Shown here: piece by piece, positions 20,856 through 41,951 of the stretch
How positions within the stretch are numbered: position 1 is the stretch's first letter
How the letters are laid out: each line of letters starts with the position of its first letter
Source of the DNA: Syntrophobacteria bacterium
GTDB lineage: Bacteria > Desulfobacterota > Syntrophobacteria > BM002
Reading direction: 5' to 3'
Length of the DNA: 57,117 nucleotides
NCBI GenBank assembly: GCA_041560295.1
Contig: JBFFBS010000001.1
Coordinates: forward strand, 1 to 57,117
Notes under the pieces: model-generated
The model's database searches: none
Told to the model about the DNA's origin: nothing
Seen by the model: the letters and a program-made list of their open reading frames with translations, nothing else
Translations under genes and position numbers: made by a program

Positions 20856-20870
20856 TGGCACTAATCTTGC
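20856..20870 (+). promoter_or_regulatory. Sigma-54 type -24/-12 promoter
   Basis: TGGCAC-taatc-TTGC is an exact consensus with correct GG-to-GC spacing. It lies 65 nt upstream of the ATG at 20935. Confidence 0.7.
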
Positions 20871-20934
20871 GAACTCGGGCATACATTGAAATTTCTCTAT
20901 GCGATGGGGTGGATCACAACCAGGGGGATATGTA

Positions 20935-23370
20935 ATGGGACCCAGGAACAGACTCTTCTTACTTGCACTGATCATCTTCTTATTGTTTGGCACCGTGCCA
21001 GCTGTGCATGCTCAACCTGATTGCACTCCTATCATTGCTGGCACCAGTATTGACAAGCCTCAACCGGTCTCCTGTGATGTTGCACCAATTTGTTACAGCA
21101 GCGAGATCACACATCCTGACAAAGTCTATTATTACTCCATTGATGGTCTTGTGGCCGGTCAAATTTTGACCATCGATGTCGATACTGATGGTCTTTCATC
21201 CTCCCTTGATTCCGTATTGGAACTTTTCGATAGCGACGGGAATTGGCTCGATGTCAGTTATGATGACCCAGCGCCAGGAGAAAAGGAATCTATTGTAGAC
21301 CCATACTTGGTATTTGCCGTCCCTGCCGACGGTGGTGGCACTTATAAATTTGGTATCAGTGCTGACGGTTCAGGAGCTCATACTGGTCCTTACACCTTTT
21401 TCCTTGAGTGTTCCGATCAGCCCACTCCTTCAGAGTTCAAATGGCCAGTTGTAGTTGGTGATTTGATAGGTGCCACTGGGTCCAACCCTGGTTCGCTTAT
21501 AAACATCGCCCCTGCGGATGCCGAAAGCTCTCTTCCTTTCCCCCTGGGTGTAGGCCCGATAGCAGATATAGAATACCAATTCATTACGCATAAGATCTTC
21601 GTTGCCATCAATGATACTTTAGGCAGCATTGTTGCCATAGATGCGGATTCAGTCGCTGCACCTCAGACCTTCAGCTTGAGTTCGGAGACAGGGGCGGAAG
21701 TTACCACGGTTGTTGCCCTCGAGGCCGCGGAGAATACGCTCTACGGAGTTCAGGCAGATCCTGCTCTTGAACAGTTCGATCTGGTCCAGGTCATTTTTGA
21801 TGATGCCGCCTTAACAGCCACGTTAACAACACCTGTTTTTTCATTTGGTACGCAGCCAGTATGGGCCCTCGCATATCATCAATCTGAAAAAATACTGTAC
21901 GGCGTTAGCGGCAGGGCTCTGCTCAAAATCAATCTGGCATTGCCCCCCTTTGGATTTGAAGAAATACCGCTAACTGGCTTATCCTCTGACATCGCTTCTA
22001 TGGACTTCAGTCATGAGGACATACTGTATGTTGTTGATGTCGAAGGAAATCTTTATGAGGTATTATCCCTCACTACCGGCGAAGTCAGGTTGATCAACCC
22101 CATAAATGCCACCGGTGGAGTTAGTAGCCTGACCTTTGGGGTTGGGGAACCCCCGAATGATGATCCAATAAAGACCATCTGTTCTTCAACATTTACCACT
22201 TCAGCATCTGCCAGCTCCGGAACTGCTGCCCCCAAACTCTCCAGATCCAAACTCAAGAGGAATCCCCTGCATCGTGCCGTCGGCCTCTTTAAGTTTCAGG
22301 GCATAGTTGGTGAAACGGTTACCCTGCACATAAAGGCAGAAGAGGAAGAGTCCGCAGAGGCTGTTGTTGAGGAATCTTCTGTGAACGAACTCGAGAATCC
22401 ATGGCTGAACTACTGGAAAGGCAAAGGGCGGGTGTTCCTGGGAATCCGAGATTCGATTCCTGGTCTTGACTTTCGGGCAAGAAAGAAAGACCAATTACCT
22501 TTCACTTTGTCGGCAACTTTGCCAGCGGACGGTACCTATTACGTCATGGTTATTCGACCCCTGCTCCGCTTCTACCAGACTGACTATTGCTTAACTTTGG
22601 AGTCAGACAATGAGAATAGTCAGGCCTGGGAAAGCTTTGATGTGGCCTGGCCTAGCGATGACTCAGGGGATGATAGCGCATCAACATCGGCTGAAGAGCC
22701 AAAAGATGTTCAGAATAATACTGAAACGCTGGCTGGCACATCTGCGGGCGACAGCCCAGTGCCAGTTGCTCTCAGCGCCACCGCTATTGCGCCCACCACT
22801 GTTCCCCCTGAGGAGCCTGTCGTTGAGACCCCCCCTGTAGAGGCAGCGCCTGTCGCTGACGGTGGTGATCCTAAAATCGTACAAAGCCTTGCCGAAACTC
22901 CTGTAGTCGAACCTGTTGCTGAAATTCCTGCAGTCGAGCCTGCTGCTGAAACTCCTGCAGTCGAGCCTGTTGCTGAAATCCCTGTACTCGAGCCTGTTGC
23001 CGAAATCCCTGTACTCGAGCCTGTTGCTGAAACTCCTGCAGTCGAACCTGTTGCTGAAACTCCTGTAGTCGAACCTGTTGCTGAAACTCCTGTAGTCGAG
23101 CTTGCTGCTGAAACTCCTGCAGTAGAGCCTGTTGCTGAAACTCCTGCAGTCGAGCCTGTTGCTGAAACTCCTGTAGTCGAAGCTGTGGCTGAAGCTCCTG
23201 TACTCGAGCCTGTTGCTGAAATCCCCGTGGTTACCGAGCCTGCTGCTGACGATGGCAGTGGAACCGAATCTGCTGATGACGGCACCAGTGATGAAGTCGG
23301 TGATGCCACACCGGTTGATGAGGAATACTCTGATGACCCTATGGAAGATTCACCCCCCATGAAGGGGTAG
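20935..23370 (+). CDS. Large secreted protein: signal peptide, two PPC-like jelly-roll segments, a repeat-containing middle region, and an acidic Pro/Glu/Val-rich 9-aa tandem-repeat tail
   Basis: The signal peptide is MGPRNRLFLLALIIFLLFGTVPAVHA-QP. The segments YYYSIDGLVAGQILTIDVDTDG...LELFDSDG and GTYYVMVIRP...YCLTLES resemble the pre-peptidase C-terminal domain. The C-terminus has 12-13 AETPAVEPV units. Confidence 0.75.
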   Translation: MGPRNRLFLLALIIFLLFGTVPAVHAQPDCTPIIAGTSIDKPQPVSCDVAPICYSSEITHPDKVYYYSIDGLVAGQILTIDVDTDGLSSSLDSVLELFDSDGNWLDVSYDDPAPGEKESIVDPYLVFAVPADGGGTYKFGISADGSGAHTGPYTFFLECSDQPTPSEFKWPVVVGDLIGATGSNPGSLINIAPADAESSLPFPLGVGPIADIEYQFITHKIFVAINDTLGSIVAIDADSVAAPQTFSLSSETGAEVTTVVALEAAENTLYGVQADPALEQFDLVQVIFDDAALTATLTTPVFSFGTQPVWALAYHQSEKILYGVSGRALLKINLALPPFGFEEIPLTGLSSDIASMDFSHEDILYVVDVEGNLYEVLSLTTGEVRLINPINATGGVSSLTFGVGEPPNDDPIKTICSSTFTTSASASSGTAAPKLSRSKLKRNPLHRAVGLFKFQGIVGETVTLHIKAEEEESAEAVVEESSVNELENPWLNYWKGKGRVFLGIRDSIPGLDFRARKKDQLPFTLSATLPADGTYYVMVIRPLLRFYQTDYCLTLESDNENSQAWESFDVAWPSDDSGDDSASTSAEEPKDVQNNTETLAGTSAGDSPVPVALSATAIAPTTVPPEEPVVETPPVEAAPVADGGDPKIVQSLAETPVVEPVAEIPAVEPAAETPAVEPVAEIPVLEPVAEIPVLEPVAETPAVEPVAETPVVEPVAETPVVELAAETPAVEPVAETPAVEPVAETPVVEAVAEAPVLEPVAEIPVVTEPAADDGSGTESADDGTSDEVGDATPVDEEYSDDPMEDSPPMKG
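22891..23235 (+). repeat. 27-bp in-frame tandem repeat array (about 12.8 units)
   Basis: The unit gctgaaactcctgcagtcgagcctgtt is repeated with point variants and encodes AE(T/I)P(A/V)(V/L)EP(V/A). Confidence 0.9.
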
Positions 23371-23445
23371 TCTTTCCTTTGTGAACCGCAGCTAATTCCT
23401 GTGGTTCGAAGTAAAATAGTGTAACCGCCCTGATAAAGGGCTGGT

Positions 23446-23517
23446 TCATCCCCCCCCTCACCCCAACCATTCGGCACAAGAAAGGCCGAAGCCCTCTCCT
23501 CCCCAGGAGGAGAGGGC
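23446..23517. repeat. GC-rich REP-like palindromic element
   Basis: catcccccccctcaccccaacc is followed by the hairpin gccctctcctcc-ccagg-aggagagggc. It is related in reverse complement to 50805..50845. Confidence 0.65.
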
Positions 23518-24019: not shown

Positions 24020-25849
24020 ATGAAAGTTCAACGGATCACCATTGCAATACTTGTCATCTTCTTAATCGGCATCGGTATCTTTGCCCAGACCCTGCACCAA
24101 CAGGAACAGCGGAGTAGAAGTCAAGACCTGCAGCACAGAGGAAATTACCTTGTCAGTCTGGTTGCGCTTCATCCGATGGAAAACTTTCTCGGCAGCAAGC
24201 GGGACTACATCGTCAAGACACTGGCTGAATACGTTACTTCAGATGGCTTGATCTATTGCATCGTCCAAGATCAAACTGGAAGTCCCCTCCTCTCCTTGGC
24301 ACACCGTGATGTTGTGGCCAAAATCCCCACTGAGGTGGAACAACGATCCCTGTATGTAAACGGGTTCATACAACAGACCTATAAGATGGTGGGAACGGAC
24401 CAGACCATAAGTGAATTTGCCAAACCCATTTTTGAAGGTGGACAGCGAAGTGGCACGGTGAGAATGGGTTTTGATCTCCCGCCCATATCAATGTTTTCTC
24501 TCGAGCGCATTAAGCTTATGGCCATAATGGCCTTTTTCGCATTTTCCATGGCGGTCCTGGTCTATTACGGGGTCACCCTGGCACTTCGACCTCTCCATGA
24601 AGTCAATCAAAACTTCAGAAACATCTGCATAGACTCAGTGCCTGTGTCTCCCGGTTCTTTCAGGAATGGCGGGGTTGGCGAAATCATAAAAGGCCTCGAG
24701 CAATCGGTGTTTCAACTCAAAGACAGATACGAGAAAATCCAGGCCGAAAATATCGATTTGACCACCAAATATGGTGTCATTTCATTCGAGAAACACAATG
24801 TCTTCAACATCCTGGATTCCATAAATTACGGGATCATTGTGACTGATATCCAGGATAATATAACTCACATCAACTCCTACATGCTGAATTTTCTCGACAA
24901 AAAACAGGATGAGGTGATCGATCACTCTTTAGGTGACGTACTCAGTCACGATCAAATAGAAGGATTTCTTTCACAGCAGGAGGCACTGAAGCAAAGTAGT
25001 GGCGCTCGTCATATTGAGGCCACATTTCCTGAACTTGCCTCTGGAGAGTCGTTTCTCGTCTCTTTGTCTTATTTGAGTGGGAGAGAGGAAGATGTCATTG
25101 GCAAGGTCATATCGTTTAAGAACATAACCAGTGAGAAATCAGCTGAAAATGCCAAGCATGAATTTATCACTCGTATCACTCACGAATTACTTACGCCCTT
25201 GACGACTATTAATTCATACAATGAGATGTTGATGGATGATGAAATAGACAACGTTGAGATGCAAAAGGAATTCTATAACACCATCAATGAAGAGACCAGT
25301 CGCTTGACGAGTCTCGTCAAGAACCTGCTCAACATTTCCAAGATTGAAATGGGCAGTCTAACCCTCCACAAAGGACTCGTCAAAAGTGATTGGCTTTTTG
25401 ACGATTGTCTGACCACCGTAGAGGGGACCGCCCAAAAGAAAAACATTACCATTGAAAGGAACGTGCCTGACAGCTTTCCAGCTCTATTCGCTGACAAAGA
25501 ACTCCTGAAGGTGGCAGTCATCAACATCCTGGGCAATGCAGTGAAATATACTCCTGAAAACGGGCACATTCAATTCATGCTCACCGAACAGGATGACTTC
25601 ATAATCTTCGAAGTCATCGACGATGGCTACGGCATTTCCAAGGAAGATCTCCCCCATATTTTCGACAAGTTCTATCGCTCGACAGATCCTCGTGTTACCG
25701 AACAGACCGGAAGTGGCCTGGGGCTTGCATTAACTTCGGAGATCGTTCGCCTCCACGGTGGAGAGATTGAGGTAAGCAGTAAGCCTGACGAGGGAAGTTA
25801 CTTCAAGATCAGGCTACCGAAGGAGGAATATTACCTTGGAAAACAATAA
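24020..25849 (+). CDS. Sensor histidine kinase (membrane-anchored, PAS-like, HisKA, HATPase_c)
   Basis: 609 aa with two TM segments, the H-box FITRITHELLTPLTTI, N-box NILGNAVKYTP, G1 DDGYGI and G2 GSGLGLAL. Confidence 0.92.
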   Translation: MKVQRITIAILVIFLIGIGIFAQTLHQQEQRSRSQDLQHRGNYLVSLVALHPMENFLGSKRDYIVKTLAEYVTSDGLIYCIVQDQTGSPLLSLAHRDVVAKIPTEVEQRSLYVNGFIQQTYKMVGTDQTISEFAKPIFEGGQRSGTVRMGFDLPPISMFSLERIKLMAIMAFFAFSMAVLVYYGVTLALRPLHEVNQNFRNICIDSVPVSPGSFRNGGVGEIIKGLEQSVFQLKDRYEKIQAENIDLTTKYGVISFEKHNVFNILDSINYGIIVTDIQDNITHINSYMLNFLDKKQDEVIDHSLGDVLSHDQIEGFLSQQEALKQSSGARHIEATFPELASGESFLVSLSYLSGREEDVIGKVISFKNITSEKSAENAKHEFITRITHELLTPLTTINSYNEMLMDDEIDNVEMQKEFYNTINEETSRLTSLVKNLLNISKIEMGSLTLHKGLVKSDWLFDDCLTTVEGTAQKKNITIERNVPDSFPALFADKELLKVAVINILGNAVKYTPENGHIQFMLTEQDDFIIFEVIDDGYGISKEDLPHIFDKFYRSTDPRVTEQTGSGLGLALTSEIVRLHGGEIEVSSKPDEGSYFKIRLPKEEYYLGKQ

Positions 25850-26213
25850 ACGGGTTCTGGTCATAGACGATGAAGCCCACATCAGGCGAGTGATCGAACT
25901 CAAATTCAAAAACCAGGGCTATCAAGTCATTACCGCCACAAATGGTGAGGAGGGGCTTGATCTCATCAAGAGCCAGCAACCAGATGTTGTTATCACCGAC
26001 ATCATGATGCCCAAGCTAGATGGCAAGGCTCTGTGTGAACGAGCAAACGAACTGAAGGAGAAAAGACCTTTTTTGACCATTGTCATGACATGTCGCATAT
26101 CTCCAACCGAGAAGGACTGGATAGAACAACTGACAGATACCGTATTTGTGGAAAAGCCTTTCAGCCTCCAGACAATTTTGAAATGCGTTGACCAATATTT
26201 TGGGGACCATTAA
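25836..26213 (+). CDS. Single-domain response regulator (CheY-like receiver)
   Basis: 125 aa with VLVIDDE...DVVITDIMMPKLDG...K and no output domain. The TTG start overlaps the kinase stop. Confidence 0.88.
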   Translation: MENNKRVLVIDDEAHIRRVIELKFKNQGYQVITATNGEEGLDLIKSQQPDVVITDIMMPKLDGKALCERANELKEKRPFLTIVMTCRISPTEKDWIEQLTDTVFVEKPFSLQTILKCVDQYFGDH

Positions 26214-26215
26214 CA

Positions 26216-27742
26216 ATGATAGATCTAGGCCAATCTAAGGAGTTTCTCTCGAGCCTGTCGAACGTCAGCCACCTGCATTTCCAGATTTGGGATGCCGATG
26301 AGGGATTGGTGTTTTCCTCAGGATCAGATAAGCCTGCTGAGCCAGCCTTTGAGGAACTCCAGGACTTTTCACTGCAGATTATAAGCAGCGGTGCATTCCA
26401 ACATATTCCACTTGAGTCCGGAGAAGGGCTGTTTGGTGTACCCCTCAGGAATGGGCAGGCAGTAGCCGGCTCCCTCATTGCCTTTGGTTCCAACTCTCAG
26501 CAAAAACCTCTGCTAGAAACCGCCAGGGCACCGCAACCGGGCCAGGCCGAAGAGATGGAGAAATTTCTCAGCCAGGTGGCGGAATTTGTGGAAGAAAAAC
26601 TAACCATCCAACAAGAGATGGAACAGATGGCGGAAGAGCTGACCGAGAACTTTGAACAGCTCTGTTTCTACTCCAAGATTGCCAGTCGAGTCAAAAGCAT
26701 AACGTTTTCGGGTGCCATGCTCCAAGAGCTCGTTGAAGAGCTTCTGGATACAATGCGCACCGACATGGCTTTTGCCAAACTGCCGGAGCGACCAGAATAC
26801 AACGCCCTGGTCTATACTCAGAAAATCCCTGAGAAGATCGGTGACTACGATGACTTCATCGATGTCCTCATAGACTCCATCCCGCTGGACTCACCTTCAT
26901 TAAAGGAAGACTACTTTATCGTTAACGATTCAAGGACAACCCCAGGATTCAGTGATCTTGCTCCGGATCCCTATCGTTTCCTCGCGGTAAAGATGAAACA
27001 CAACGGAAATTTCTACGGCTGGATGGGGCTGGTCTCATTCAATTTCAAAGAAATTTTCCGGCGAAGCGAACTTAGGCTGTTAGATTCGATGGCCGAGCAA
27101 ATCGCCGTGGTTATTACCAATTCAGATCTTTACCGTGACCTGGAACGGTTCGTCATCAACATGGTGAAATCACTGGTCTTCGCCATCGAGGCCAAGGACG
27201 ACTATACCCGTGGGCACTCTGAACGAGTTTGTCAGTATTCCCTCCTGATGGCAGACAGACTTGGTTTGGATGAAGAGCGGAAAAAAATACTCCAGTGGTC
27301 ATCTATTCTGCACGACAGTGGGAAAATTGGCATTCCCGAATCCATTTTGAATAAACCCTGGCGGTTGAAAGACGAGGAATATCAAATCATTAAGAACCAC
27401 CCCATAAAGGGCCACACCATCTTGGAACCCTTGGAGCAACTGGCAAGTTCACTTCCTGGCATGCTGCACCACCATGAGCGCTACGATGGTAAAGGGTACC
27501 CGCAGGGTTTAAAAGGCAAAAAAATTCCGCTGGAGGCCCGAATCATTGCCGTTGCCGACACCTTCGATGCCATCACTTCTAACCGGGCTTATCGCCCGGC
27601 AAAAGCTCCGGAAGAGGCCCTGGAAGAGATAGAAAAAGTGGCTGGAACCCAGTTGGATCCCGATTTGGTTAAAGTGTTCAAAGAGGTATTTACTCGAGAC
27701 CTTGTGCCGGAGCAGGGATGCAGCGTCGAAGAGCAAAGTTGA
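26216..27742 (+). CDS. HD-GYP domain protein (predicted c-di-GMP phosphodiesterase) with an N-terminal sensory/GAF-like region
   Basis: 508 aa with HSERV...LHDSGKIGIPESILNKP...HHERYDGKGYPQGL...DTFDAITSNRAYR. Confidence 0.9.
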   Translation: MIDLGQSKEFLSSLSNVSHLHFQIWDADEGLVFSSGSDKPAEPAFEELQDFSLQIISSGAFQHIPLESGEGLFGVPLRNGQAVAGSLIAFGSNSQQKPLLETARAPQPGQAEEMEKFLSQVAEFVEEKLTIQQEMEQMAEELTENFEQLCFYSKIASRVKSITFSGAMLQELVEELLDTMRTDMAFAKLPERPEYNALVYTQKIPEKIGDYDDFIDVLIDSIPLDSPSLKEDYFIVNDSRTTPGFSDLAPDPYRFLAVKMKHNGNFYGWMGLVSFNFKEIFRRSELRLLDSMAEQIAVVITNSDLYRDLERFVINMVKSLVFAIEAKDDYTRGHSERVCQYSLLMADRLGLDEERKKILQWSSILHDSGKIGIPESILNKPWRLKDEEYQIIKNHPIKGHTILEPLEQLASSLPGMLHHHERYDGKGYPQGLKGKKIPLEARIIAVADTFDAITSNRAYRPAKAPEEALEEIEKVAGTQLDPDLVKVFKEVFTRDLVPEQGCSVEEQS

Positions 27743-27746
27743 GAGC

Positions 27747-28094
27747 ATGACACCATCATCATCCGCAATTTCTATAGCGAAAGTCGGCACCAGGACGGTC
27801 CTTGCGCCCAGAGAGTCATTGACCTATGAAACCTGTGAAGAACTAGAAACCACCTTTGATGAGTGCCTCAATGACCAGAGGGCAGATATTATTTTGGACT
27901 GCAAGGATGTAACCTTCATGGACAGTGAAGCTCTTGAACTATTGGTACGAATGCATGATGAGCTAAGAAATCGCGGCAGCGTATTGAAAATAATTACCTT
28001 GAACGATGTCTGTCGCGACATATTTGTCGCAACCCGGCTCATACATTTGCATGTTTACGAAGATATCCACCAAGCCATCAGAAGTGAACGATGA
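27747..28094 (+). CDS. STAS domain protein (anti-sigma-factor-antagonist fold)
   Basis: About 115 aa with ILDCKDVTFMDSEALELLV...GSVLKIITLNDVCRDIF, a typical SpoIIAA/STAS pattern. Its stop overlaps the ATPase start (ATGA at 28091-28094). Confidence 0.8.
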   Translation: MTPSSSAISIAKVGTRTVLAPRESLTYETCEELETTFDECLNDQRADIILDCKDVTFMDSEALELLVRMHDELRNRGSVLKIITLNDVCRDIFVATRLIHLHVYEDIHQAIRSER

Positions 28095-32652: not shown

Positions 32653-32763
32653 AAGCAGACTCTGAAATTTCAAGCTCCACATGATCGTATCTCTCCATCA
32701 GACAGCCAGTGGTGGCAATTCATGTGCCTCAATAGCAAGAGCGCTCACAATATATCAGAGAAA

Positions 32764-33408: not shown

Positions 33409-35910
33409 ATGAAAAAAGACAAAATTCTTCATAGAGACGACCGAGGCTACATCCTCCTGATGGTGGTCGTCATGATGCTGGTCATGGCTGTCATGGCCTT
33501 TGGCATGAACCGGCGTGCGGGGATGCAGGCCAAAATGGCAACCAACCAAACCCGGAGCAGCCAAACTCATCTTGGCCAGATAGCGGCTCTGGAAGATGCT
33601 GCCTGGCTCCTGAACCGCGATCCTGGGTGGCGAACAAGCGGTGCAGGTGAGGATTACACTTTCAGCGGTATCAAGTACAAGCGCTTCGTACTGGATGCCT
33701 CCGGCTACAGTGATGTGGTCACCGTTACGGTAACCGCTCCGGGGGGATTAAAGAAGCTTAGCTCAAGCTTCCGCGTGATTACCCCAACTGTCACTTACTA
33801 TCTGATTGCTGACACCGATAATCACTCCATCAGAAGGGTGGATACCTCCACAGGGGTAATCACCACATTTGCCGGCACCGGTTCATCCGGCTATTCAGGA
33901 AACGGCGGACCGGCCATTAGTGCCAATCTCAATAAACCAAGAGGGGTTTTTGCTGATGGAGCGGGAAATATTTATATAGCCGACACTGATAACGATTGCA
34001 TTCGAAAAGTAGACGCATCAGAAACCATTACCACGGTAGCAGGTATTGGAGGCAGTCACGACTTTAGCGGCGACGGTGGGGACGCGACCAACGCCAAACT
34101 GGACAAACCGAGAGGTGTTGCTGCTGATTATGCGGGAAACATCTATATTGCTGATACGAACAATCACGTCATTAGAAAGGTGGATGCCACCACCGGGATT
34201 ATCGATACCGTGGCGGGCATAGGTAAACAAAACGGCTACACTGGAGACGGCGGACTGGCAACCGCGGCAAAATTAGATAAACCCCGAGGCGTTTGGGTGG
34301 ATGGTTCCGGAAATATCTATATTGCTGACACAGAGAACAACCGAATCAGAATGATGGATGCCACAACGCAGATTATCACCACCATCGCTGGAAACGGTGG
34401 CAGTGGCTACACTGGAGACAATGGGCCAGCTACCGCTGCTGAACTGCGCAAACCAAATGGGGTCGTTGTTGATGTCTCTGGCAACATTTACATCGCCGAC
34501 ACCGATAATAACGTGATCAGAATGGTGGATGCCACAACGCAGTTTATCACCACCGTTGCGGGAACCGGCTCAGGAGGATATTCGGGAGATGATGTGCCAG
34601 CCACCAGTACCGCATTGCGTAAACCGCGCGGTCTGTGGCTGGATGAATCCGGCAATATCCTCATCGCAGACACTGATAATCACCGAGCCAGGTTGGTCTA
34701 TGACGATGGTGGCACTCTGATGATAACCACCGTCGCGGGAGACGGTAGCGCGGGTTATTCAGGAGACAACGGAGCGGCAACCAGCGCTTCCCTCAACAAA
34801 CCTCACGGTGTGTGCATATATGAGACTTTGCCACCTGCATACCTCGTCATTGCTGACCCTTCAAATCACCGGATTAGAGAGGTGAATCTTACCACCGGGA
34901 TCATTACCAAGGTCGCCGGGACTTTTTGGTCTGGCTACAACGGAGATAATATTGACGCCACATGGGCCAGACTGTATTACCCCTTTGGGGTGCACGTGGA
35001 TTCGTCCCACAACACCTACATTGCCGATACCTACAATCACCGCATCAGAAAGGTGGATGGTAAGACCGGGATCATAACCACCGTGGCCGGTACCGGCTCC
35101 AAAGGATTCTCGGGTGACGGTGGGCCGGCAACCAGCGCCAGGCTGAGGTACCCCTTCAACCTGTTCCTGGATACGGTAGGAAATATATATATTGCAGACA
35201 CCTACAATTACCGGATCAGAAAAGTTGACGCCGCAACCAAGATCATAACCACCGTGGTGGGAGACGGCTCGGCCAAATTTAAAGGCGATGGCGGCCTGGC
35301 CACTGATGCCAGCATCATGAAGTCTTATGATGTGGCGGTGGATAGCGCGGGCAACATCTTCATTGCCGACACCCACAGTCACGCGATTAGAAAAGTGGAC
35401 GCCACTACCGGTATCATCAACACCGTGGTGGGCCAAGGTGGCAGTGCCGGTTTTTCAGGCGATGGTGGGCTGGCCACCGACGCCAAGCTCAATTCACCCA
35501 CTGGCGTCTATGTGGATGCTGCCGGAAATATCTACGTGGTAGACACCAAAAATGATCTGATCAGAAAGGTGGACGCTACCACAAATATCATCAACAGTGT
35601 TGCCGGAAACGGCACCCCCGGCTTCTCGGGTGACGGAGGCCTAGCCACCCTCGCTCAACTCGATTACCCTGAAGCCGCATGGGTTGATAGCGGTGGCAAC
35701 ATGTTTGTTGTGGATACAGAGAACTGCCGCATCAGAAGGGTGGACGGTACGACCGGGATCATCACCACCGTGGCGGGCACGACCTATTGCGGCTATAACG
35801 GCAACAACCAGCCGGCCACCGACGCTGCCCTCTACTATCCCTCCGAGAACTCTGTCTATGAGCCTTCGTCTCTGGAAAGGTTGCCTGAAATCTATCGAAC
35901 CACTAACTGA
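33409..35910 (+). CDS. GspK/PilX-position minor pseudopilin fused to 12 NHL repeats (predicted double six-bladed beta-propeller)
   Basis: The N-terminus is RG-YILLMVVVMMLVMAVMAFGMNRRAGMQAKMATNQ, with no Glu+5 (as in GspK/PilX) and a PilX_N-like helix. There follow 12 copies of ...KP.GV.VD..GNIYIADT.N..IRKVD..TGIITTVAG.G..G.SGDGG.AT.A.L. Confidence 0.85.
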   Translation: MKKDKILHRDDRGYILLMVVVMMLVMAVMAFGMNRRAGMQAKMATNQTRSSQTHLGQIAALEDAAWLLNRDPGWRTSGAGEDYTFSGIKYKRFVLDASGYSDVVTVTVTAPGGLKKLSSSFRVITPTVTYYLIADTDNHSIRRVDTSTGVITTFAGTGSSGYSGNGGPAISANLNKPRGVFADGAGNIYIADTDNDCIRKVDASETITTVAGIGGSHDFSGDGGDATNAKLDKPRGVAADYAGNIYIADTNNHVIRKVDATTGIIDTVAGIGKQNGYTGDGGLATAAKLDKPRGVWVDGSGNIYIADTENNRIRMMDATTQIITTIAGNGGSGYTGDNGPATAAELRKPNGVVVDVSGNIYIADTDNNVIRMVDATTQFITTVAGTGSGGYSGDDVPATSTALRKPRGLWLDESGNILIADTDNHRARLVYDDGGTLMITTVAGDGSAGYSGDNGAATSASLNKPHGVCIYETLPPAYLVIADPSNHRIREVNLTTGIITKVAGTFWSGYNGDNIDATWARLYYPFGVHVDSSHNTYIADTYNHRIRKVDGKTGIITTVAGTGSKGFSGDGGPATSARLRYPFNLFLDTVGNIYIADTYNYRIRKVDAATKIITTVVGDGSAKFKGDGGLATDASIMKSYDVAVDSAGNIFIADTHSHAIRKVDATTGIINTVVGQGGSAGFSGDGGLATDAKLNSPTGVYVDAAGNIYVVDTKNDLIRKVDATTNIINSVAGNGTPGFSGDGGLATLAQLDYPEAAWVDSGGNMFVVDTENCRIRRVDGTTGIITTVAGTTYCGYNGNNQPATDAALYYPSENSVYEPSSLERLPEIYRTTN

Positions 35911-35923
35911 AAGTGAAAAATAA

Positions 35924-35997
35924 GGTGTCAGGTGTCAGCAAAGAAAAACAAACAACTGAAACCTGAACACTGAAAGCTGAAACCTCAGTCTTTGTGA
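35924..35997. repeat. Heptamer-arm hairpin (ggtgtca/ctgaaac family), copy 1
   Basis: ggtgtcaggtgtcagc...ctgaaacctgaacactgaaagctgaaacctcagtctttgtga. It shares 15-nt and 21-nt identical blocks with 40804..40881. Confidence 0.8.
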
Positions 35998-36072
35998 AAT
36001 AAGCACCCACTTTACTACCCCAGGCACTTACTGCTGCATCTCTTGTCACTTACCTATTTGAAACAATCTGCG

Positions 36073-36087
36073 TGGCATGAGCCTTGC
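36073..36087 (+). promoter_or_regulatory. Sigma-54 type -24/-12 promoter upstream of pilM
   Basis: TGGCAT-gagcc-TTGCa has consensus spacing. It lies about 330 nt upstream of the pilM ATG, and REP-like hairpins sit in the leader. Confidence 0.55.
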
Positions 36088-36297
36088 ACATGGAATGAAT
36101 CGAGTGGGTTAGATTCGGAATCGCTCAGTCACAACATAGCCTTTCTGTCCCGCTCCAGGTGTTTAAGCAATTGGTCGCTCGTTAACAAGGTCTGAACTGA
36201 TTTGAAACGAAGGGCAGAGCCGAGAATAAATCCCCTTCACCCTTTTGAATCACTGCTTCGCTGGATCTGCCTATGGGTGGAATTTAACAGGGCGAGT

Positions 36298-36377
36298 CAC
36301 CCTTTAAAAAGGGGAGATATTTTGAATTGATTACATTGAGTTCCCCCCTTTGATAAAGGGGGGTTAGGGGGGATTTT
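36298..36377. repeat. GC-rich REP-like palindromes (cccccctttNataaagggggg type)
   Basis: caccctttaaaaagggg and ttcccccctttgataaaggggggttaggggggatttt. The same motif occurs at 56157..56250. Confidence 0.7.
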
Positions 36378-36414
36378 ATAAGGCTTGTAACTACCATAAC
36401 CTTTAGAGAACAGT

Positions 36415-37527
36415 ATGCGTAACTTCAACTCCATATTCCCTGTCGGTATCGACATAGGCCGCCGCAACGTCTACGCTGCTCAACTGCAAGAAACCAAGCA
36501 GGGTCTGGTGGTCAGGGGGTTGGTGCATCAAGAATACCAGAATGAGACTGATGGAATTCTTGCAGCAAGAGATGTTCTGGTACCCTTGCTAAAGGATATT
36601 ATCGGTGATAAACGACTGAAGGGTAGACGAGTAGTTGTTAACTTTCCCGCTCAATATCTCCTCAGCTTTCCTTTAAACTTCCAGGTTGGCAAAGAAGAAA
36701 CTGTAGAGACAGCCATCCTCCGTCATTCGAGGCAGTATATTACCTTTCCCCTGGAAGAAGCCATTATCGATTACCCATCGCTCGCACCCACAGGTGATGA
36801 CAATAAATTTAGGGCGAGCATCATCGCGGTTCGCAGAGAACATGTGCAAGACTACCTCTCCATGCTCAGAAAGGCTGGTTTGACCGTTGAAGTTGTTGAT
36901 TTCGCTGTTTCCACTTTGGTCCGCCTTCATAGGTATGCTCACACGACCATCCAGAATCCCATAATCCTGTGCAATATCGGCGACACCCAAAGCCAACTTT
37001 CAATAGTAACCCAGGACTCTATTCTGGTTCAGCGCCAGATTCCCTGGGGAGTACACATGCTTCGGAAGAATCTGCGGGCCAACCTTGAACTCTCCGGTGA
37101 CGGGGACAAGACCAAGGTCCTTCTCAAAGAATATGGGCTCTTCTACGAAGATTGTCGAGACTGCAGTATCGACGAGAATCCGGAACCGACAACCGATACT
37201 GATGAAGCGAGAACCATGTACCGCGCCATCTACCAGATCATAAACCCACAGATTGAAGAACTGGTACATGAACTTCATAAAGTGATCGGCTATGGAAGAT
37301 CTGAGCAGCAGGATGCGATTTTCGATGGAATCTACATATACGGCCAGGGAACCTTCATAAACCATCTCGACCGCTACCTGGAAAAGAGACTCAACATCCA
37401 CACCAGGCTGATGAATCCCCTGACCAAGGTGGCCTTGTCTGACGACAACGGCTCTGTTGATATATCGGAAGGTGGACCTTTCAGCCTTGCTCTGGGTCTG
37501 GCTCTGCGGAAAGTATCATGGCTCTAA
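36415..37527 (+). CDS. pilM: PilM-like actin-fold assembly protein
   Basis: 370 aa with GIDIGRRNVYAAQL at the N-terminus (ASKHA phosphate-1 motif). It immediately precedes the PilN/O-like genes, with an overlapping stop/start. Confidence 0.8.
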   Translation: MRNFNSIFPVGIDIGRRNVYAAQLQETKQGLVVRGLVHQEYQNETDGILAARDVLVPLLKDIIGDKRLKGRRVVVNFPAQYLLSFPLNFQVGKEETVETAILRHSRQYITFPLEEAIIDYPSLAPTGDDNKFRASIIAVRREHVQDYLSMLRKAGLTVEVVDFAVSTLVRLHRYAHTTIQNPIILCNIGDTQSQLSIVTQDSILVQRQIPWGVHMLRKNLRANLELSGDGDKTKVLLKEYGLFYEDCRDCSIDENPEPTTDTDEARTMYRAIYQIINPQIEELVHELHKVIGYGRSEQQDAIFDGIYIYGQGTFINHLDRYLEKRLNIHTRLMNPLTKVALSDDNGSVDISEGGPFSLALGLALRKVSWL

Positions 37528-38096
37528 GAGAAATAAATCTTACTCCAAGTGAGATACTGGCTCGCCGCGAGTTCCTCCGGCATCTCGGTTTTTGGGCAGG
37601 GTGTCTGCTCATCTCTCTTGCTTTGATCTGGGGTTTTTACTTTTTGCAGGAACACGCCCTCTCAGCCAAGAAGCGCAAAGTGGCCGAATTGAAAAGAATG
37701 CACCTTAACTTGGGTACAAAAATCGATGAAATCAAGCTAATGCGAGCAGAATTGAATACACTCCGCCAAAAACAATCTGGACTGGAAGATATAACCTTAA
37801 ATAAACCCTATTCCAGAATATTCGCCGAATTATCTGATCTCATCAATGAACACACCTGGCTCACGCAACTGAACATCGATAGTGGTTTGGAGGAGAAAAC
37901 CGCGGCCAGTTTGAAACTGACCGGGTTTTCTTTTTCAGCAGAAGAACTTGGGAATTTTCTGGACCAGTTGTCGAGTGAACCCTTGTTCAAGACAGTAGTT
38001 TTGCAACAGGCTCGCGAGTATGAAACGGTGCAATTGAGCAAGAACACACACGCGCCAATTCGGTTAATCCAATTCAATATCGAGTGTAATATTTAG
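37518..38096 (+). CDS. pilN: PilN-like bitopic assembly protein
   Basis: 192 aa with an INL-type N-terminus (REINLTPSEILARRE), one TM segment, a coiled coil and a ferredoxin-like C-terminus. Operon position supports the call. Confidence 0.75.
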   Translation: MALREINLTPSEILARREFLRHLGFWAGCLLISLALIWGFYFLQEHALSAKKRKVAELKRMHLNLGTKIDEIKLMRAELNTLRQKQSGLEDITLNKPYSRIFAELSDLINEHTWLTQLNIDSGLEEKTAASLKLTGFSFSAEELGNFLDQLSSEPLFKTVVLQQAREYETVQLSKNTHAPIRLIQFNIECNI

Positions 38097-38101
38097 TAAA
38101 T

Positions 38102-38641
38102 ATGATCAATATCAATATTAAAAGATTGGATCAAATATGTATTGCCCTCGTAATCATTGTATCGTTGATATGTGGTTACTGGGTTATGAATCAAACTATC
38201 AAGCAAAGGTGGCAATTACGACAGGAAAACGACATTATATCCAAGACCTTAATTGAATTGAAAACGGCAGAAGAAAATTTCGAAAATTTAAATACCCTCT
38301 TGGCTGATACGAAAAGAGAATTAGAATTTCTGGATAAACGGATTCCGGAATCGGTCAATATTGGTCAGGTTCTGAAAGAAATAGATTACTTAATGAAAGA
38401 TAGAAAAATTGTATTGTTAAGCTTGCAACCACTACCACCGGTAGAGGAGAAACTGTATGTCAAGATTCCAATACGTCTGATGTTTGAGGGCTCTTTTGCC
38501 AGCATCTATCACCTGCTTTATGATCTTGAGACCATGAATCGCATGTTAGTGGCTGAAAATATGAGTATTTCCAGGCGTAACCTCGACGAAAAATGCCACG
38601 CTGAAATAACGGCCAGTGTTTATCAACGCTTGAAGGAGTAA
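38102..38641 (+). CDS. pilO: PilO-like assembly protein
   Basis: 179 aa with one TM segment, a coiled coil, and YVKIPIRLMFEGSFASIYHLLYDLETMNRML, which is typical of PilO. Confidence 0.75.
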   Translation: MININIKRLDQICIALVIIVSLICGYWVMNQTIKQRWQLRQENDIISKTLIELKTAEENFENLNTLLADTKRELEFLDKRIPESVNIGQVLKEIDYLMKDRKIVLLSLQPLPPVEEKLYVKIPIRLMFEGSFASIYHLLYDLETMNRMLVAENMSISRRNLDEKCHAEITASVYQRLKE

Positions 38642-38645
38642 GCAA

Positions 38646-39167
38646 GTGGATGACGGTGGTTCCAGGCAAAGCAAGAGCACCGGGCGAATCAAGATTTATC
38701 TGATTGTTGGCCTGGCTCTCGTACTGGCGGCATTGGTTTACCGTTACCTGCATGCAAGGGCTGCCCAGAATAGGAGCATCTCTCCGCCTCCTGCCACTGC
38801 CACAGTGTCCGAGATGCCTGAACTTCCTGATCTCTACATGGGAAGACAGCAAGAGACGCAGGTTGCACGGCCAAATATCAGAGAACTCCGAAGGTTGTTT
38901 GTGCGTGATATTTTTGCTCCTGCTAAATCTCTGCCAAAAGCCGGGCGCCCAACCATGAAGGGCCAACCTGCACAACGACAGGTGAAATCCCTGAAACTCA
39001 AGGGTGTTATTATCGGTGGGCAACACTCCATCGCCATTATTAATGACAAATTCGTTCGCACGGGTGAACGGATCGATGGATATAGAGTAGTAAGAATTGC
39101 GGAAAAAGAAGTTTTGTTGAAGTCGGGTAATAAAACCATCAAATTAAGGCTGGTTAGCAATGATTAA
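38646..39167 (+). CDS. PilP/GspC-like secretin-associated protein
   Basis: 173 aa with a GTG start, one TM segment, and the C-terminal beta domain LKLKGVIIGGQHSIAIINDKFVRTGERIDGYRVVRIAEKEVLL. Confidence 0.6.
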   Translation: MDDGGSRQSKSTGRIKIYLIVGLALVLAALVYRYLHARAAQNRSISPPPATATVSEMPELPDLYMGRQQETQVARPNIRELRRLFVRDIFAPAKSLPKAGRPTMKGQPAQRQVKSLKLKGVIIGGQHSIAIINDKFVRTGERIDGYRVVRIAEKEVLLKSGNKTIKLRLVSND

Positions 39168-40692
39168 AAAAACACCATTTCTTACCATGTTGGTTGTTAT
39201 CCTGGCCCTTGCTATCGGTCCAGTGTCGGCGCAGTCTGTAAGGGAGTCGGACCAGATCGGTGCGCGGCAGCAAGAAAAAGATGCTGTATCTACCACTGAG
39301 CAAGGGAGTGGGCAATATGTCCCCGCAATTGGGGCGAGCAAAACTGCTCAGTATAAAGCCCGTTACAGGAGATTAATAAACCTCAGCCTCATTGACACTG
39401 AAATTAGAGATGCTCTTTCCGCCCTCGCCATGGATCAGGAGATCAACATTGCCACAGCCACGGAGGTCTCGGGGAAGATCTCCGTTCACCTCTACCAGGT
39501 AACCCTGGAAAAAGCACTGCATGCCATTACCCTTGCAGGAGGATTCAGTTACCACAAACACGGTGATGTCTACTACGTTTACAAGCCCAAGAAAGCCCAG
39601 GATCCGCAGATTGACAGGCTGCAGATGCGAATCTTTCAACTCAAATATGCTGATGTTGACAAGGTCCAAGAAGTCCTTGGTGGCTTGCCGGGTATACGAA
39701 TGCTCAAGTTTCATGAGCCGTCCAAAACCATTATTATCGAGGACACCCCGGAAAACATTAAGAAAGTTGAACAAATCATTGCCCATTGGGATGCGATGCC
39801 CAAGCAGGTCATGATCGAAGCCAGAATCCTAGAGATAACTCTGACGGATGATATGGAATTAGGCGTTGAATGGGCCGCCCTATTAGGAGACGTTAGAGTT
39901 GGCACCTCGAGTTTCAGCAGATCGGTATTGCCTACAGACACGGAGGTCTCACCGGTGCCTGACACCGGCTCAGGTCTCTTTTTCAATCTCTTGACCGGTT
40001 CTGACTCCCGTCGGTTTGCGGCCGCCATCGATGCCCTGCAGGAAAAGACCAATGTCAACACCCTCTCAACTCCCAAGGTCCTGGCTATTCATGGTGAACC
40101 TGCCAAGGTGCAGGTGGGTGGACAGCAGGGCTACTCGGTGGCCACAACAAACCTGGGTGTGACAACCGAGAACATCCAGTTCATAGACACCGGTATCGTT
40201 CTGGAGATAGTTCCCTATATTGATGATGACGGCAATGTTTTGCTCAATGTGAAACCGAGCATTACTTCAGCGCAAATCGAGGGTCCATCAGGAATCCCGG
40301 TAACCAGTACCGCCTTTGTCGAGACCTGGCTGCTGGCTGCAAGCGGGGAGACTGTTCTCATCGGAGGGCTCATCCAAGATAGTATAACCAAGACTAGAAG
40401 TGAGGTCCCCTGCCTGGGAGATCTTCCCTTGCTCGGCCTTCTTTTCGGGAGCCGCGGTCGGAGTGTAGATAAGACAGAGTTGGTCGTATTAATTACACCC
40501 ACGGTGGTGGATAGAAAGAAAAAAGGCGTGGGTGAGGTTGAAGCCATCATAAGAACCGAGAAGGTTGAAGAGGAGATGAAACAAGAACCTCTGCCTCCGT
40601 ATCGGCAAATTTGGGAATTAAGCAAACCCTGGGAAAAAACAATTAATAAGCCTCAAGAGAGTATAGATCTAAACTCAAGTGAATCTCCATGA
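39160..40692 (+). CDS. Outer-membrane secretin (PilQ/GspD family)
   Basis: 510 aa with a signal peptide, N-domains, and the secretin core VLIGGLIQDSITKTRSEVPCLGDLPLLGLLFGS...LVVLITPTVV. Confidence 0.92.
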   Translation: MIKKTPFLTMLVVILALAIGPVSAQSVRESDQIGARQQEKDAVSTTEQGSGQYVPAIGASKTAQYKARYRRLINLSLIDTEIRDALSALAMDQEINIATATEVSGKISVHLYQVTLEKALHAITLAGGFSYHKHGDVYYVYKPKKAQDPQIDRLQMRIFQLKYADVDKVQEVLGGLPGIRMLKFHEPSKTIIIEDTPENIKKVEQIIAHWDAMPKQVMIEARILEITLTDDMELGVEWAALLGDVRVGTSSFSRSVLPTDTEVSPVPDTGSGLFFNLLTGSDSRRFAAAIDALQEKTNVNTLSTPKVLAIHGEPAKVQVGGQQGYSVATTNLGVTTENIQFIDTGIVLEIVPYIDDDGNVLLNVKPSITSAQIEGPSGIPVTSTAFVETWLLAASGETVLIGGLIQDSITKTRSEVPCLGDLPLLGLLFGSRGRSVDKTELVVLITPTVVDRKKKGVGEVEAIIRTEKVEEEMKQEPLPPYRQIWELSKPWEKTINKPQESIDLNSSESP

Positions 40693-40803
40693 TCGGCCTC
40701 TGCCCGGTGAAGCGGAAGAAATGTGGCAACAAAGAATCCGGGGTTGGAAGACGTGGTGGAGTAAGGCGAACTTATGAAATTTCAAACTCCAAGCACCAAA
40801 TAT

Positions 40804-40881
40804 CAGGGGCTCAGGTGTCAGGTGTCAGAAAAAAGAAACATAGAGGTTGAAATCTGAACACTGAAACCTCAGTCTTTGTGA
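40804..40881. repeat. Heptamer-arm hairpin (ggtgtca/ctgaaac family), copy 2
   Basis: caggggctcaggtgtcaggtgtcag...ttgaaatctgaacactgaaacctcagtctttgtga. It is a direct repeat of 35924..35997. Confidence 0.8.
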
Positions 40882-41042
40882 TTTGGAATTTCTATTTTTC
40901 GAATACTCCCGTACTCCAAAACCTCTGGACATCTTTACCGGTAAAACCATTGAACTTTTAGCTGACCCTGAGGAACAGGTTTTCTGTGACTAAATAGAGG
41001 AAAAGTTCCCCACATTGACTCTGGGATCGACGCGCTTTGAAT

Positions 41043-41951
41043 ATGGATATTGGAAACCGAGCTCAACAATCTGTTCTCTCTGTTGATGACGACGCGGAAC
41101 TGCGAGAACTGCTCCACGAATTGATTGGTCAGATGGGGCACGCCAGTGTGGTAGCAGCTGATGGCCTTGATGCCCTGGAGAAGATGGAGGAGCAACAGTT
41201 CGACATTGTCATTACCGATATCAATATGCCGCGTTTGAACGGAGTAGGGTTGATCAAGAGGATTGCCTCTGATTACACCGACACCGATGTCATTGCCATT
41301 ACCGGGTACCAAACGGAATATAACTACACCGACATTATTGCCCTTGGTGCGAGTGACTTCATCTCCAAACCAATTAACATAGACGAGTTCGAGGCGAAGA
41401 TAAAACGGGTTGTACGCGAACGAAATATGCGTTTTGAGCTGAGACGACTTTCCACCTGCGATGCCCTCACAGGACTCTACAATCGCAGACATCTGGACGA
41501 AAATCTACCGAACGAGGCTATCCGCGCTTCCCGACAGCATTATGATCTTTATCTGCTCCTCATCGACATCGACAACTTCAAGGTGTACAACGACAAATAC
41601 GGCCACCAGCAGGGGGACAGGTTACTCAAGGAACTGGCCCAGATAATAACACGGAGCATCCGTGAGAATGTAGACTCGGGTTACCGCTATGGCGGTGATG
41701 AGTTTGCGGCCACCATTCTGCACGCTAACCCACAGCAGGCATTGATGGTGGCGGAGAGGCTTCGAGCCGAATACAACGCAAAAAACCTGGTGCCGACCAG
41801 CCTAAGCATCGGCATAGCCAAATTGAAGAATTCCTACAGCACGCTGGAAGAAGACCTGGATGGACTGATCAGAGAGGCCGACCAGGCCCTCTATCTGGCA
41901 AAAAATAACGGCGGCGACCAGAACGTAATGCTAGAGCTCGGCTCGTCGTAA
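41043..41951 (+). CDS. Response regulator with a GGDEF diguanylate cyclase output
   Basis: The receiver has VLSVDDD...DIVITDINMPRLNG. The GGDEF domain has LTGLYNRRHL...RYGGDEFAATI and a complete GGDEF active site. Confidence 0.92.
   Translation: MDIGNRAQQSVLSVDDDAELRELLHELIGQMGHASVVAADGLDALEKMEEQQFDIVITDINMPRLNGVGLIKRIASDYTDTDVIAITGYQTEYNYTDIIALGASDFISKPINIDEFEAKIKRVVRERNMRFELRRLSTCDALTGLYNRRHLDENLPNEAIRASRQHYDLYLLLIDIDNFKVYNDKYGHQQGDRLLKELAQIITRSIRENVDSGYRYGGDEFAATILHANPQQALMVAERLRAEYNAKNLVPTSLSIGIAKLKNSYSTLEEDLDGLIREADQALYLAKNNGGDQNVMLELGSS

Follow-up and report, generated by a model that had tools for sequence, protein, structure and literature searches.

We analyzed a 57,117-nt stretch of contig JBFFBS010000001.1 from a Syntrophobacteria bacterium (GenBank assembly GCA_041560295.1; here, the window), in which an earlier note, made by reading the sequence alone, had described a composite type IV filament machine wrapped in cyclic di-GMP (c-di-GMP) signaling. 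The feature occupies positions 20856 to 41951 of the window and lies entirely on the + strand. Based on a listing of open reading frames (ORFs) and on profile searches against Pfam and NCBIfam with curated cutoffs, we recovered an uninterrupted series of 18 + strand genes at or near the positions claimed. In order, these encode an 811-aa secreted protein; a sensor histidine kinase, a receiver, a c-di-GMP phosphodiesterase, and a STAS protein; an assembly ATPase and a platform protein; five pilin-like proteins in the order G, H, I, J, and K of type II secretion systems (T2SS); PilM-, PilN-, PilO-, and PilP-like proteins; a secretin; and a receiver-GGDEF protein. From the kinase through the ATPase, adjacent genes overlap or are separated by 2 to 5 nt.

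STAS pairing with the assembly ATPase

The 570-aa assembly ATPase (28091 to 29803) consists of an MshEN domain (66 bits), an N2 domain, and a catalytic domain with a tetracysteine zinc motif (T2SSE, 449 bits). Its gene overlaps by 4 nt (ATGA) the gene for a 115-aa STAS protein with the anti-sigma-antagonist fold (27747 to 28094, with 27747 as the likely true start within a long ORF, 27702..28094). The STAS protein scored 49.7 bits against Pfam STAS (cutoff, 22.6) and missed the superfamily model TIGR00377 (45.2; cutoff, 53.45). Residues 11 to 63 of the ATPase hold the tandem 24-5-24 MshEN motif with one substitution relative to the published relaxed pattern, and the protein scored 51.9 bits against NCBIfam NF053729 (cutoff, 38). 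This motif match equals that of Aeromonas MshE and is better than that of Myxococcus PilB, a reported c-di-GMP binder; Pseudomonas aeruginosa XcpR and Escherichia coli GspE lack the motif. By its MshEN motif, the ATPase is a predicted c-di-GMP receptor.

Overall, the ATPase is 42 to 44% identical to the PilB proteins of Geobacter and Myxococcus, 43 to 44% identical to XcpR, and 38% identical to Aeromonas caviae MshE. Its N-terminal region, which is of the MshEN and not the GspL-binding N1E type, shares 14 to 15% identity with those of E. coli GspE and XcpR. We built a neighbor-joining tree that, once one duplicate locus had been dropped, held 94 sequences: the window ATPase, another 88 drawn from 79 genome loci and 2 metagenome loci, and, as references, six proteins (E. 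coli GspE and HofB, P. aeruginosa XcpR, A. caviae MshE from a complete mannose-sensitive hemagglutinin [MSHA] cluster, and Geobacter and Myxococcus PilB from PDB alignments). With loci taken from among the matches listed, this is a modest tree and no substitute for a full reference phylogeny. All six references fell outside the clade of the window ATPase, which had bootstrap support of 92/100 for members from Desulfobacterota, Nitrospirota, and Thermodesulfobacteriota, 100/100 with Gammaproteobacteria added, and 95/100 with a Phycisphaeraceae and a Flavobacteriales locus also included. As placed by ATPase sequence, the clade spans Desulfobacterota, Nitrospirota, Gammaproteobacteria, Planctomycetota, and Bacteroidota.

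Among the loci listed, the STAS profile detected a STAS domain in all 14 loci of this clade and in none of the 69 others. Nine clade loci have a stand-alone STAS gene whose end meets the start of the ATPase gene, and five (L005, L008, L009, L010, and L014, the last from Oceanimonas marisflavi) encode the domain as an in-frame fusion to the ATPase N terminus; the linker in L005 is ∼10 residues long, with the STAS domain directly before the MshEN motif. The corresponding Pfam architecture, STAS+MshEN+T2SSE, occurs in seven independent database gene calls of 680 to 708 aa. Coupling was also recovered when searches began from the STAS protein, whose subfamily comprises 59 representative clusters at E ≤ 1e-10 among 1.84 billion proteins. 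All three contigs encoding distant STAS relatives (34 to 39% identity) have an MshEN ATPase N terminus starting at the STAS stop; an HD-GYP gene was confirmed upstream in one of them (L091), and the upstream fragments on the other two were too short to match. This STAS-only query of a 50%-identity representative library returned mostly stand-alone proteins of 110 to 125 aa; fused forms sit under ATPase clusters, so the search is uninformative on fusion frequency.

The earlier note had pointed to the ATGA overlap as an unusual arrangement and proposed a search for conserved synteny in related genomes. The pairing is kept throughout the clade, and the coupling is far stronger than could be told from the sequence reading alone. 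A serine occupies the position of the SpoIIAA Ser58 phospho-site in all 12 aligned homologs. We found no paper in the searchable literature linking a STAS protein or anti-sigma antagonist to PilB, GspE, or MshEN, and an obligatory STAS partner or fusion of a motor ATPase appears, as far as could be established, to be new.

BLAST comparison of the window proteins with the ORFs of all loci recovered a shared clade order of kinase, receiver, c-di-GMP enzyme, STAS, ATPase, platform, pilins, PilMNOP, and secretin. The full series is kept in L001 (ATPase identity, 85%), L092 (72%), L005 (71%), the Nitrospirae locus L045 (60%), and L006 (57%), so that it persists in Nitrospirota and Thermodesulfobacteriota at ATPase identities as low as 57 to 60%. 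The top database relatives come from Syntrophobacterales/Desulfobacterota metagenome bins, and more than 100 database clusters have ATPase identities of ≥70%. The names given to the ATPase differ by source (PilB from the Joint Genome Institute [JGI], TadA, or generic). As judged from sequence, the locus represents a distinct, undescribed but widespread type IV filament subtype. Among local variants in layout, L006 has its major pilin gene upstream of the kinase gene, and the Phycisphaeraceae locus L016 has PilMNOP-like genes directly after the platform gene and no nearby secretin gene.

Regulatory genes, filament core, and tip pilin

The kinase (24020 to 25849) is a membrane sensor protein in which profile matches define a transmembrane (TM)-sensor-TM-PAS-HisKA-HATPase_c layout, and wherever a clade locus extends far enough upstream of the ATPase gene, a histidine kinase is encoded there. 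The gene for the single-domain CheY-like receiver (25836 to 26213; Response_reg, 70.9 bits) overlaps the end of the kinase gene, and this lone receiver is conserved in position among relatives. The third gene of this group (26216 to 27742) encodes an N-terminal domain, a GAF domain (GAF_2), and an HD-GYP phosphodiesterase (HD_5, 137.5 bits) with intact HD and HHExxDGxGYP motifs. Throughout the clade loci, the gene preceding STAS always encodes an N-terminal domain, a GAF domain, and a c-di-GMP-degrading output domain, the last being HD-GYP in deltaproteobacterial, Nitrospirae, and Planctomycete members and GGDEF-EAL in gammaproteobacterial members; L006 has an additional GAF-GGDEF gene. Because the output domain is swapped on a retained N-terminal and GAF input, the pattern argues that c-di-GMP degradation at this slot is a selected function. 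The co-conserved kinase-receiver-phosphodiesterase operon across five phyla is, as far as could be established, also new.

Genes for c-di-GMP synthesis are frequent and variable in position: a diguanylate cyclase gene lies after the secretin gene in the window, before pilM in L008, and in the regulatory prefix of L006. The window copy (41037 to 41951) encodes a receiver (REC)-GGDEF protein with an intact GGDEF motif and begins 345 nt downstream of the secretin gene. A REC gene follows the secretin gene in L005 and in the P0143 locus, and a GGDEF gene lies elsewhere in the cluster in L006 and L008. A link of the window REC-GGDEF protein to the machine is plausible; its place as part of the device, as the earlier note had it, is at best variably conserved. 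The c-di-GMP connection that the note drew is borne out by the MshEN motif of the ATPase and by the phosphodiesterase slot conserved in the clade, and its description of the device as self-contained fails because a prepilin peptidase is missing from the window. Scans with Rfam, covering all of the window at the gathering threshold and positions 20000 to 42500 at E ≤ 1, revealed no c-di-GMP riboswitch and returned two tRNAs and noise; the two tRNA genes, at 4511 to 4813 (−), alone exceed the gathering score anywhere in the window.

Downstream of the ATPase gene lies that of a GspF/PilC-type inner-membrane platform (29875 to 31029; T2SSF, 186 bits), which scored 302.7 bits against GspF (cutoff, 424) and 269 bits against PilC. 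The ATPase missed the NCBIfam cutoffs for both PilB (TIGR02538; 593.4, cutoff 675.65) and GspE (TIGR02533; 584.9, cutoff 630.25). The major (pseudo)pilin (31103 to 31651; N_methyl) has the class III signal G↓FTLIE and a GspG-like N terminus (51.6 bits; cutoff, 88.85), is 41% identical to XcpT over 66 aa, and contains one cysteine and hence no disulfide loop. It is followed by a GspH/FimU-like minor pilin (31680 to 32216; Pfam GspH, 28.6 bits; cutoff, 21), a small minor pilin in the GspI/PilV position (32221 to 32652), a minor pilin in the GspJ/PilW position (32722 to 33375; N_methyl, 32.4 bits; GspJ and PilV matches weak), and a K-type pilin. The small pilin has the signal G↓FTFLE and an N_methyl match at residues 51 to 71 of a long ORF, and its likely true start, 32221, was inferred from the sequence. 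N_methyl motifs mark all four of the proteins that precede the K-type pilin. The order, sizes, and signal peptides of the G, H, I, J, and K proteins fit a T2SS, and G, I, J, and K all scored below their curated equivalog cutoffs. The minor pilins FimU, PilV, PilW, and PilX of type IVa pili (T4aP) are the equivalent of this H-I-J-K set, and the earlier statement that T4aP loci have no such series is overstated.

The second half of the core begins with PilM (36415 to 37527; PilM_2, 100 bits), an actin-like cytoplasmic ring protein and the only core component to pass a curated cutoff (TIGR01175; 135.1 versus 133). PilN (37518 to 38096; Pfam PilN, 46.7 bits) has an N-terminal INLTP motif, and PilO (38102 to 38641) is also GspM-like (Pfam PilO, 55.2 bits; T2SSM_b, 42.6 bits). 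The next gene (38646 to 39167) encodes a bitopic PilP/GspC-like protein with a TM segment and a C-terminal beta domain, recognized by weak matches to T2SSC, GspC_delta, and MshK and by a position kept in relatives. These four proteins make up the PilM-N-O-P alignment complex by which T4aP are recognized. The short, 510-aa secretin (39160 to 40692) has a signal peptide, a weak N0/STN domain, one Secretin_N domain, and the secretin domain, and lacks AMIN and N2/N3 domains and a lipobox. It is 25 to 28% identical to HofQ, MshL, XcpQ, and GspD, and all of its scores fell below the cutoffs (PilQ TIGR02515, 206.7 versus 284.35; GspD TIGR02517, 190.5 versus 351.35; MshL TIGR02519, 176.1 versus 250.2). 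The E-F-G-H-I-J-K-like series joined to PilM-N-O-P and a secretin is thus present as the earlier note described, and as a series it matches no curated T2SS, T4aP, or MSHA equivalogs. Searches of the window by tblastn, using reference proteins from E. coli, P. aeruginosa, and Aeromonas, revealed no prepilin peptidase, PilT, GspL/M/C, or MshM/N, in agreement with the note on the first two, and we infer that the prepilin peptidase must come from elsewhere in the genome, where a PilT gene could lie as well.

The fifth pilin (33409 to 35910, with 33409 as the likely true start) is a protein of 833 to 842 aa (833 in the public gene call) with a GspK/PilX-like N terminus that lacks Glu+5. The earlier note recognized this absence, as in GspK, and overlooked what follows the pilin stalk, namely, twelve NHL repeats of ∼57 residues that form a propeller module of ∼690 aa. 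An AlphaFold model (mean predicted local distance difference test score, 87.8) has a 59-residue helix, a 4-stranded sheet, and twelve 4-stranded blades; so modeled, the protein is a pilin stalk bearing two six-bladed NHL beta-propellers. A fold search with the model returned only tandem-propeller receptor ectodomains and added nothing on the pilin module. The K position carries NHL modules in the window, L001, L005, and L092; CBM96, concanavalin A (ConA)-like lectin, and disaggregatase repeats in L008, L009, and L014 (952 to 1531 aa); and PilX_N only in L045 and L006. In relatives, the NHL, lectin, and CBM96 modules come in addition to PilX_N. Sources label orthologs of the NHL pilin (P0325, P0327, P0334, and others) as "streptogramin lyase," "sugar lactone lactonase YvrE," or "hypothetical protein." A paper on Desulfovibrio ferrophilus reports pseudopilin genes needed for short surface filaments, and the NHL proteins described there are neighbors of a cytochrome cluster, not pilins. 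As far as could be established, it is new to recognize these NHL, lectin, and CBM proteins as modular tip pilins of the K type.

Between the last pilin gene and pilM lies a sigma-54 type promoter (TGGCATGAGCCTTGCA, 36073 to 36088) upstream of the pilMNOP-secretin genes. The same 16-mer occurs in L001, 65 nt before pilM; TGGCACGCGCTTTGCA precedes pilM in L005, and CGGCATGCTTGTTGCA lies in the corresponding gap of L092. Alignment revealed the element as a conserved island amid diverged spacer DNA. No sigma-54 element was found upstream of the kinase gene in the window, and L092 shows only a weak candidate there. The spacer itself contains an insertion of ∼263 bp relative to L001 (about 36122 to 36384), between the sigma-54 element and the pilM ribosome-binding site. 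It holds the G/C-rich hairpins CACCCTTTAAAAAGGGG and CCCCCCTTTGATAAAGGGGGG and may be a small repeat, a mobile element, or a structure in the 5′ untranslated region.

Proposed function and comparison with known systems

We conclude that the locus probably encodes one type IV filament machine, complete except for the prepilin peptidase, whose likeliest output is signal-gated adhesion to a surface, a polymer, or a partner cell via the tip propellers (probability, about 0.58). An adhesive pilus is favored because the K-type subunit carries the NHL tip module. Also pointing to a surface pilus are PilMNOP in place of GspL/M/C, the PilQ-like N0+N1 secretin, the modular K subunits, and a PilT-like 353-aa ATPase gene in L006 (11721 to 12782), located between the assembly ATPase and platform genes. 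MshEN gating is, moreover, best known from pili.

As we envisage it, the kinase would phosphorylate the lone receiver, which would modulate the GAF-phosphodiesterase and, with nearby cyclases, set the local c-di-GMP concentration. Binding of c-di-GMP to MshEN and the state of the STAS protein, possibly at its conserved serine, would then determine if the hexameric ATPase docks with the PilM ring and with the GspF-like platform. Once active, the motor would assemble the GspG-like major pilin on a complex of H-, I-, J-, and K-type subunits that primes the filament, and such priming would put the NHL propellers at the filament tip. The filament would exit via the short secretin, which together with PilMNOP would be transcribed from its own sigma-54 promoter, tying synthesis of the envelope-spanning part to a separate enhancer-binding input. 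More tentatively, and at slightly less than even odds, we suggest that the STAS protein is a dedicated regulatory subunit of the filament extension ATPase that sits against the MshEN c-di-GMP site and permits assembly by combining the second-messenger signal with a two-component or phosphorylation input; with the kinase-receiver-phosphodiesterase operon and the modular K-type tip pilins, the machine would then belong to a new class found in at least five phyla.

Several observations weigh against an adhesive, STAS-gated pilus. The major subunit is GspG-like and has no disulfide, the gene order is E-F-G-H-I-J-K, the platform matches GspF best, and the catalytic core of the ATPase is equidistant from XcpR (52%) and PilB (50%). 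No retraction ATPase is present in the locus of most members, the window included, and the P0143 locus, a close relative, is without any minor pilins. No RsbW-type anti-sigma kinase or PP2C phosphatase was found among the cluster genes by Pfam. The tree is neighbor joining, with few references and with loci only from among the matches listed; the function assigned is read from domains and context, and how the STAS protein acts is a proposal.

Several of these features would suit a type II-like secretion system, in which a short periplasmic pseudopilus capped by the K subunit pushes folded periplasmic proteins through the secretin, with the Sec-dependent 811-aa neighbor as possible cargo. The contiguous E-F-G-H-I-J-K series, the GspG-like N terminus without a disulfide, the GspH threshold passed, the GspF-like platform, and the absence of PilT from the window are all in keeping with it, as are the sigma-54 promoters held by both the 811-aa gene and the pilM operon, which suggest coregulation. 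MshEN also occurs on a P. aeruginosa T2SS-type ATPase (PMC5013675), and the Geobacteraceae Pul system offers a precedent with a secretion role demonstrated in the literature. However, GspL, GspM, GspC, and GspE-N1 type partners are lacking, the secretin has no GspD N2/N3 domains, and every curated T2SS cutoff was missed. The lectin, CBM, or propeller modules of 300 to 1400 aa on the K subunits are of a kind typically seen in adhesins; L006 has a PilT-like gene; and the candidate cargo is absent from most relatives, occurring only in the nearest. We regard secretion as less likely than the adhesive pilus and as the foremost alternative to it.

Far less probable is an ordinary second T4aP locus in which the STAS, kinase, and phosphodiesterase genes are unrelated neighbors. 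PilM passes its cutoff, PilN and PilO are identified by Pfam, the nearest solved structures at full length are those of PilB from Geobacter and Myxococcus, and PilB is also the JGI name for the ATPase; further likenesses to T4aP are PilM-N-O-P, the N0+N1 secretin, the full-length PilB-like ATPase, a priming set of four minor pilins, and a large beta-propeller tip adhesin (PilY1 in T4aP). Unlike in T4aP, all genes form one locus, the ATPase (593 versus 676 for PilB) and secretin (207 versus 284 for PilQ) fall below cutoff, AMIN and PilT are absent, the major subunit has no disulfide loop, and the propeller is grafted on a K-type pilin instead of being a separate PilY1. The ATPase, moreover, falls in a separate, well-supported clade, and a prefix conserved across five phyla, with STAS fused in five loci, is incompatible with chance neighbors. 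Least credible is a rearranged MSHA-family pilus, which the earlier note had left as an alternative. It would account for the N-terminal MshEN domain with its tandem c-di-GMP motif, shared with the MSHA extension ATPase, for the short MshL-like secretin, and for the weak match of the PilP-like protein to MshK. The ATPase, however, shares just 38% identity with Aeromonas MshE, from which it stands apart in the tree, MshL scored 176 against a cutoff of 250, MshM and MshN are absent from the window, and PilM and PilN are separate genes. The window order of E-F-pilins-M-N-O-P-Q also differs from the I-J-K-L-M-N-E-G-pilins order of Aeromonas and Pelobacter, and the STAS partner and dedicated sensor/phosphodiesterase operon are absent from MSHA. 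We rejected the MSHA classification on gene order, MshM/N absence, and ATPase placement, which together largely refute it.

The Pul system of Geobacteraceae, for which work by Mehta and colleagues in 2006 is reportedly the source, shows that the pairing of E/F components with PilMNOPQ-like proteins is not without precedent. It is an atypical T2SS of order pulF-E-M-N-O-P-Q-pulG-oxpG (Aklujkar et al., 2012; PMC3543383) and, according to the literature, is required for OmpB secretion. Like the window, Pul combines in one deltaproteobacterial locus a GspE/F-type motor and platform with PilM/N/O/P/Q-like proteins and a secretin, not with GspL/M/C. The pul clusters of Geobacter and Pelobacter adjoin cell-division and DNA-metabolism genes, including one for an M23 peptidase; the window locus likewise lies near cell-envelope and DNA-metabolism genes, and an M23 peptidase gene stands beside Pul-1, the window locus, and L001. 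Compared by the published gene list, Pul differs in gene order and has just two or three pseudopilins, with neither an H-I-J-K set nor a giant tip protein. The Pul secretin carries a lipoprotein annotation, whereas the window secretin has no lipobox, and the list includes no prefix of kinase, receiver, phosphodiesterase, or STAS genes. Denise et al. (2019) recorded 884 "generic" unclassified type IV filament systems, a category into which the window locus may fall. In its predicted mode of action the locus is akin to c-di-GMP-gated type IV pili (MSHA and Myxococcus T4aP), and in makeup to Pul. Given Pul and these generic systems, the composite architecture alone is not new.

For the tip subunit, the closest parallel is in the modular type IV pilins PilB and PilC of Streptococcus sanguinis, small pilins with a bulky C-terminal ligand module that are proposed tip adhesins (Raynaud et al., 2021; PMC8179133). 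The ConA-like lectin modules of the gammaproteobacterial relatives match S. sanguinis PilC. Unlike in S. sanguinis, the carrier in the window is a GspK/PilX-type pilin without Glu+5 in a diderm, T2SS-like series, and its module is a double NHL propeller.

STAS proteins are familiar from partner switching, as in SpoIIAA and RsbV, Bordetella BtrV (type III secretion), Vibrio fischeri SypA (biofilm), and P. aeruginosa HsbA. Like these, the window protein is a single-domain STAS protein with a conserved serine at the phospho-acceptor position, and the posttranslational action of such regulators downstream of two-component input, in the control of secretion or biofilm formation, may by analogy be counted as a further likeness. 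Unlike partner-switching systems, the cluster has no RsbW-type kinase, PP2C phosphatase, or sigma/anti-sigma factor, and the fusions imply the filament ATPase as partner.

A 2016 structural paper (PMC5013675) described the tandem 24-5-24 c-di-GMP motif of MshEN and the gating of MSHA pilus extension and attachment by c-di-GMP, called the mechanism of MshEN control obscure, and reported that c-di-GMP hardly alters ATPase activity in vitro. The STAS domain, always beside or fused to the MshEN motif in this clade, is a candidate for a missing cofactor in that control. Natural STAS-ATPase fusions are proteins open to expression and testing, and O. marisflavi is a cultured carrier in which genetics is possible. 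The system is abundant in Desulfobacterota metagenomes from sediment and groundwater, and given the propeller, lectin, or carbohydrate-binding modules on its tip subunits, the machine may mediate attachment or partner recognition in syntrophic and sulfate-reducing communities. For annotation, tip pilins that pass as "streptogramin lyase" or "YvrE" have gone unrecognized as pilins in public records.

First gene and flanking DNA

The first gene of the series (20935 to 23370) encodes the 811-aa protein, which has a signal peptide; its ATG at 20935, the likely true start, is preceded by a GGGGGA ribosome-binding site. A 27-bp tandem repeat (22889 to 23221; 12.3 copies, 87% matches) encodes the acidic, proline-rich 9-aa Pro/Val/Glu unit (A/V)E(T/I)P(V/A)VEPV near the C terminus. 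The protein has no match in Pfam, NCBIfam, or PDB. Its sole homolog is in L001, at 37% identity, where the machine proteins are 55 to 85% identical, and no such gene precedes the kinase gene in L003, L092, or the P0143 locus. We dropped it as a core component, there being no family match and no conservation beyond the nearest relative; the secreted repeat protein that the earlier note counted in the cluster is a neighbor only.

A sigma-54 type −24/−12 promoter (TGGCACTAATCTTGCG, 20856 to 20871) upstream of this gene has the exact consensus TGGCAC-N5-TTGC. An intrinsic-terminator-like hairpin (23491 to 23517; 12-bp stem with 9 GC pairs and a T-rich tail) lies between the first gene and the kinase operon. 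Because this hairpin follows the first gene, the promoter most probably drives that gene alone: the element itself is as the earlier note reported it, and its role at the head of the whole cluster is not upheld. An inverted repeat, TTGCCA-N12-TGGCAA (20756 to 20779), lies ∼80 to 100 nt upstream of the promoter, where sites for enhancer-binding proteins usually lie; among the cluster genes, none for a sigma-54 activator was seen.

The flanks (14895 to 20188 and 42311 to 50423) encode PriA, a Csd3-like M23 peptidase (divergent, 18674 to 20188), a NUDIX protein, LigA, and RecN, and these flanking genes are common only to the window and L001. The M23 peptidase gene and an upstream 283-aa ORF were considered as core genes and set aside, being kept only in L001 and absent from L003, L092, and the P0143 locus. 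Outside the locus, a second filament gene set (50865 to 57117) begins with a GspH/FimU-like pilin gene (50865 to 51449, +) and includes a second MshEN-containing assembly ATPase (52083 to 53894, −), whose best NCBIfam match is TfpB (644 bits; cutoff, 850). A sigma-54-like element at 54561 (TGGCATGTAACTTGC) is followed by FimU/GspH-like (54688), PilW-like (55218), and PilV-like (56119) minor pilin genes toward the window end.

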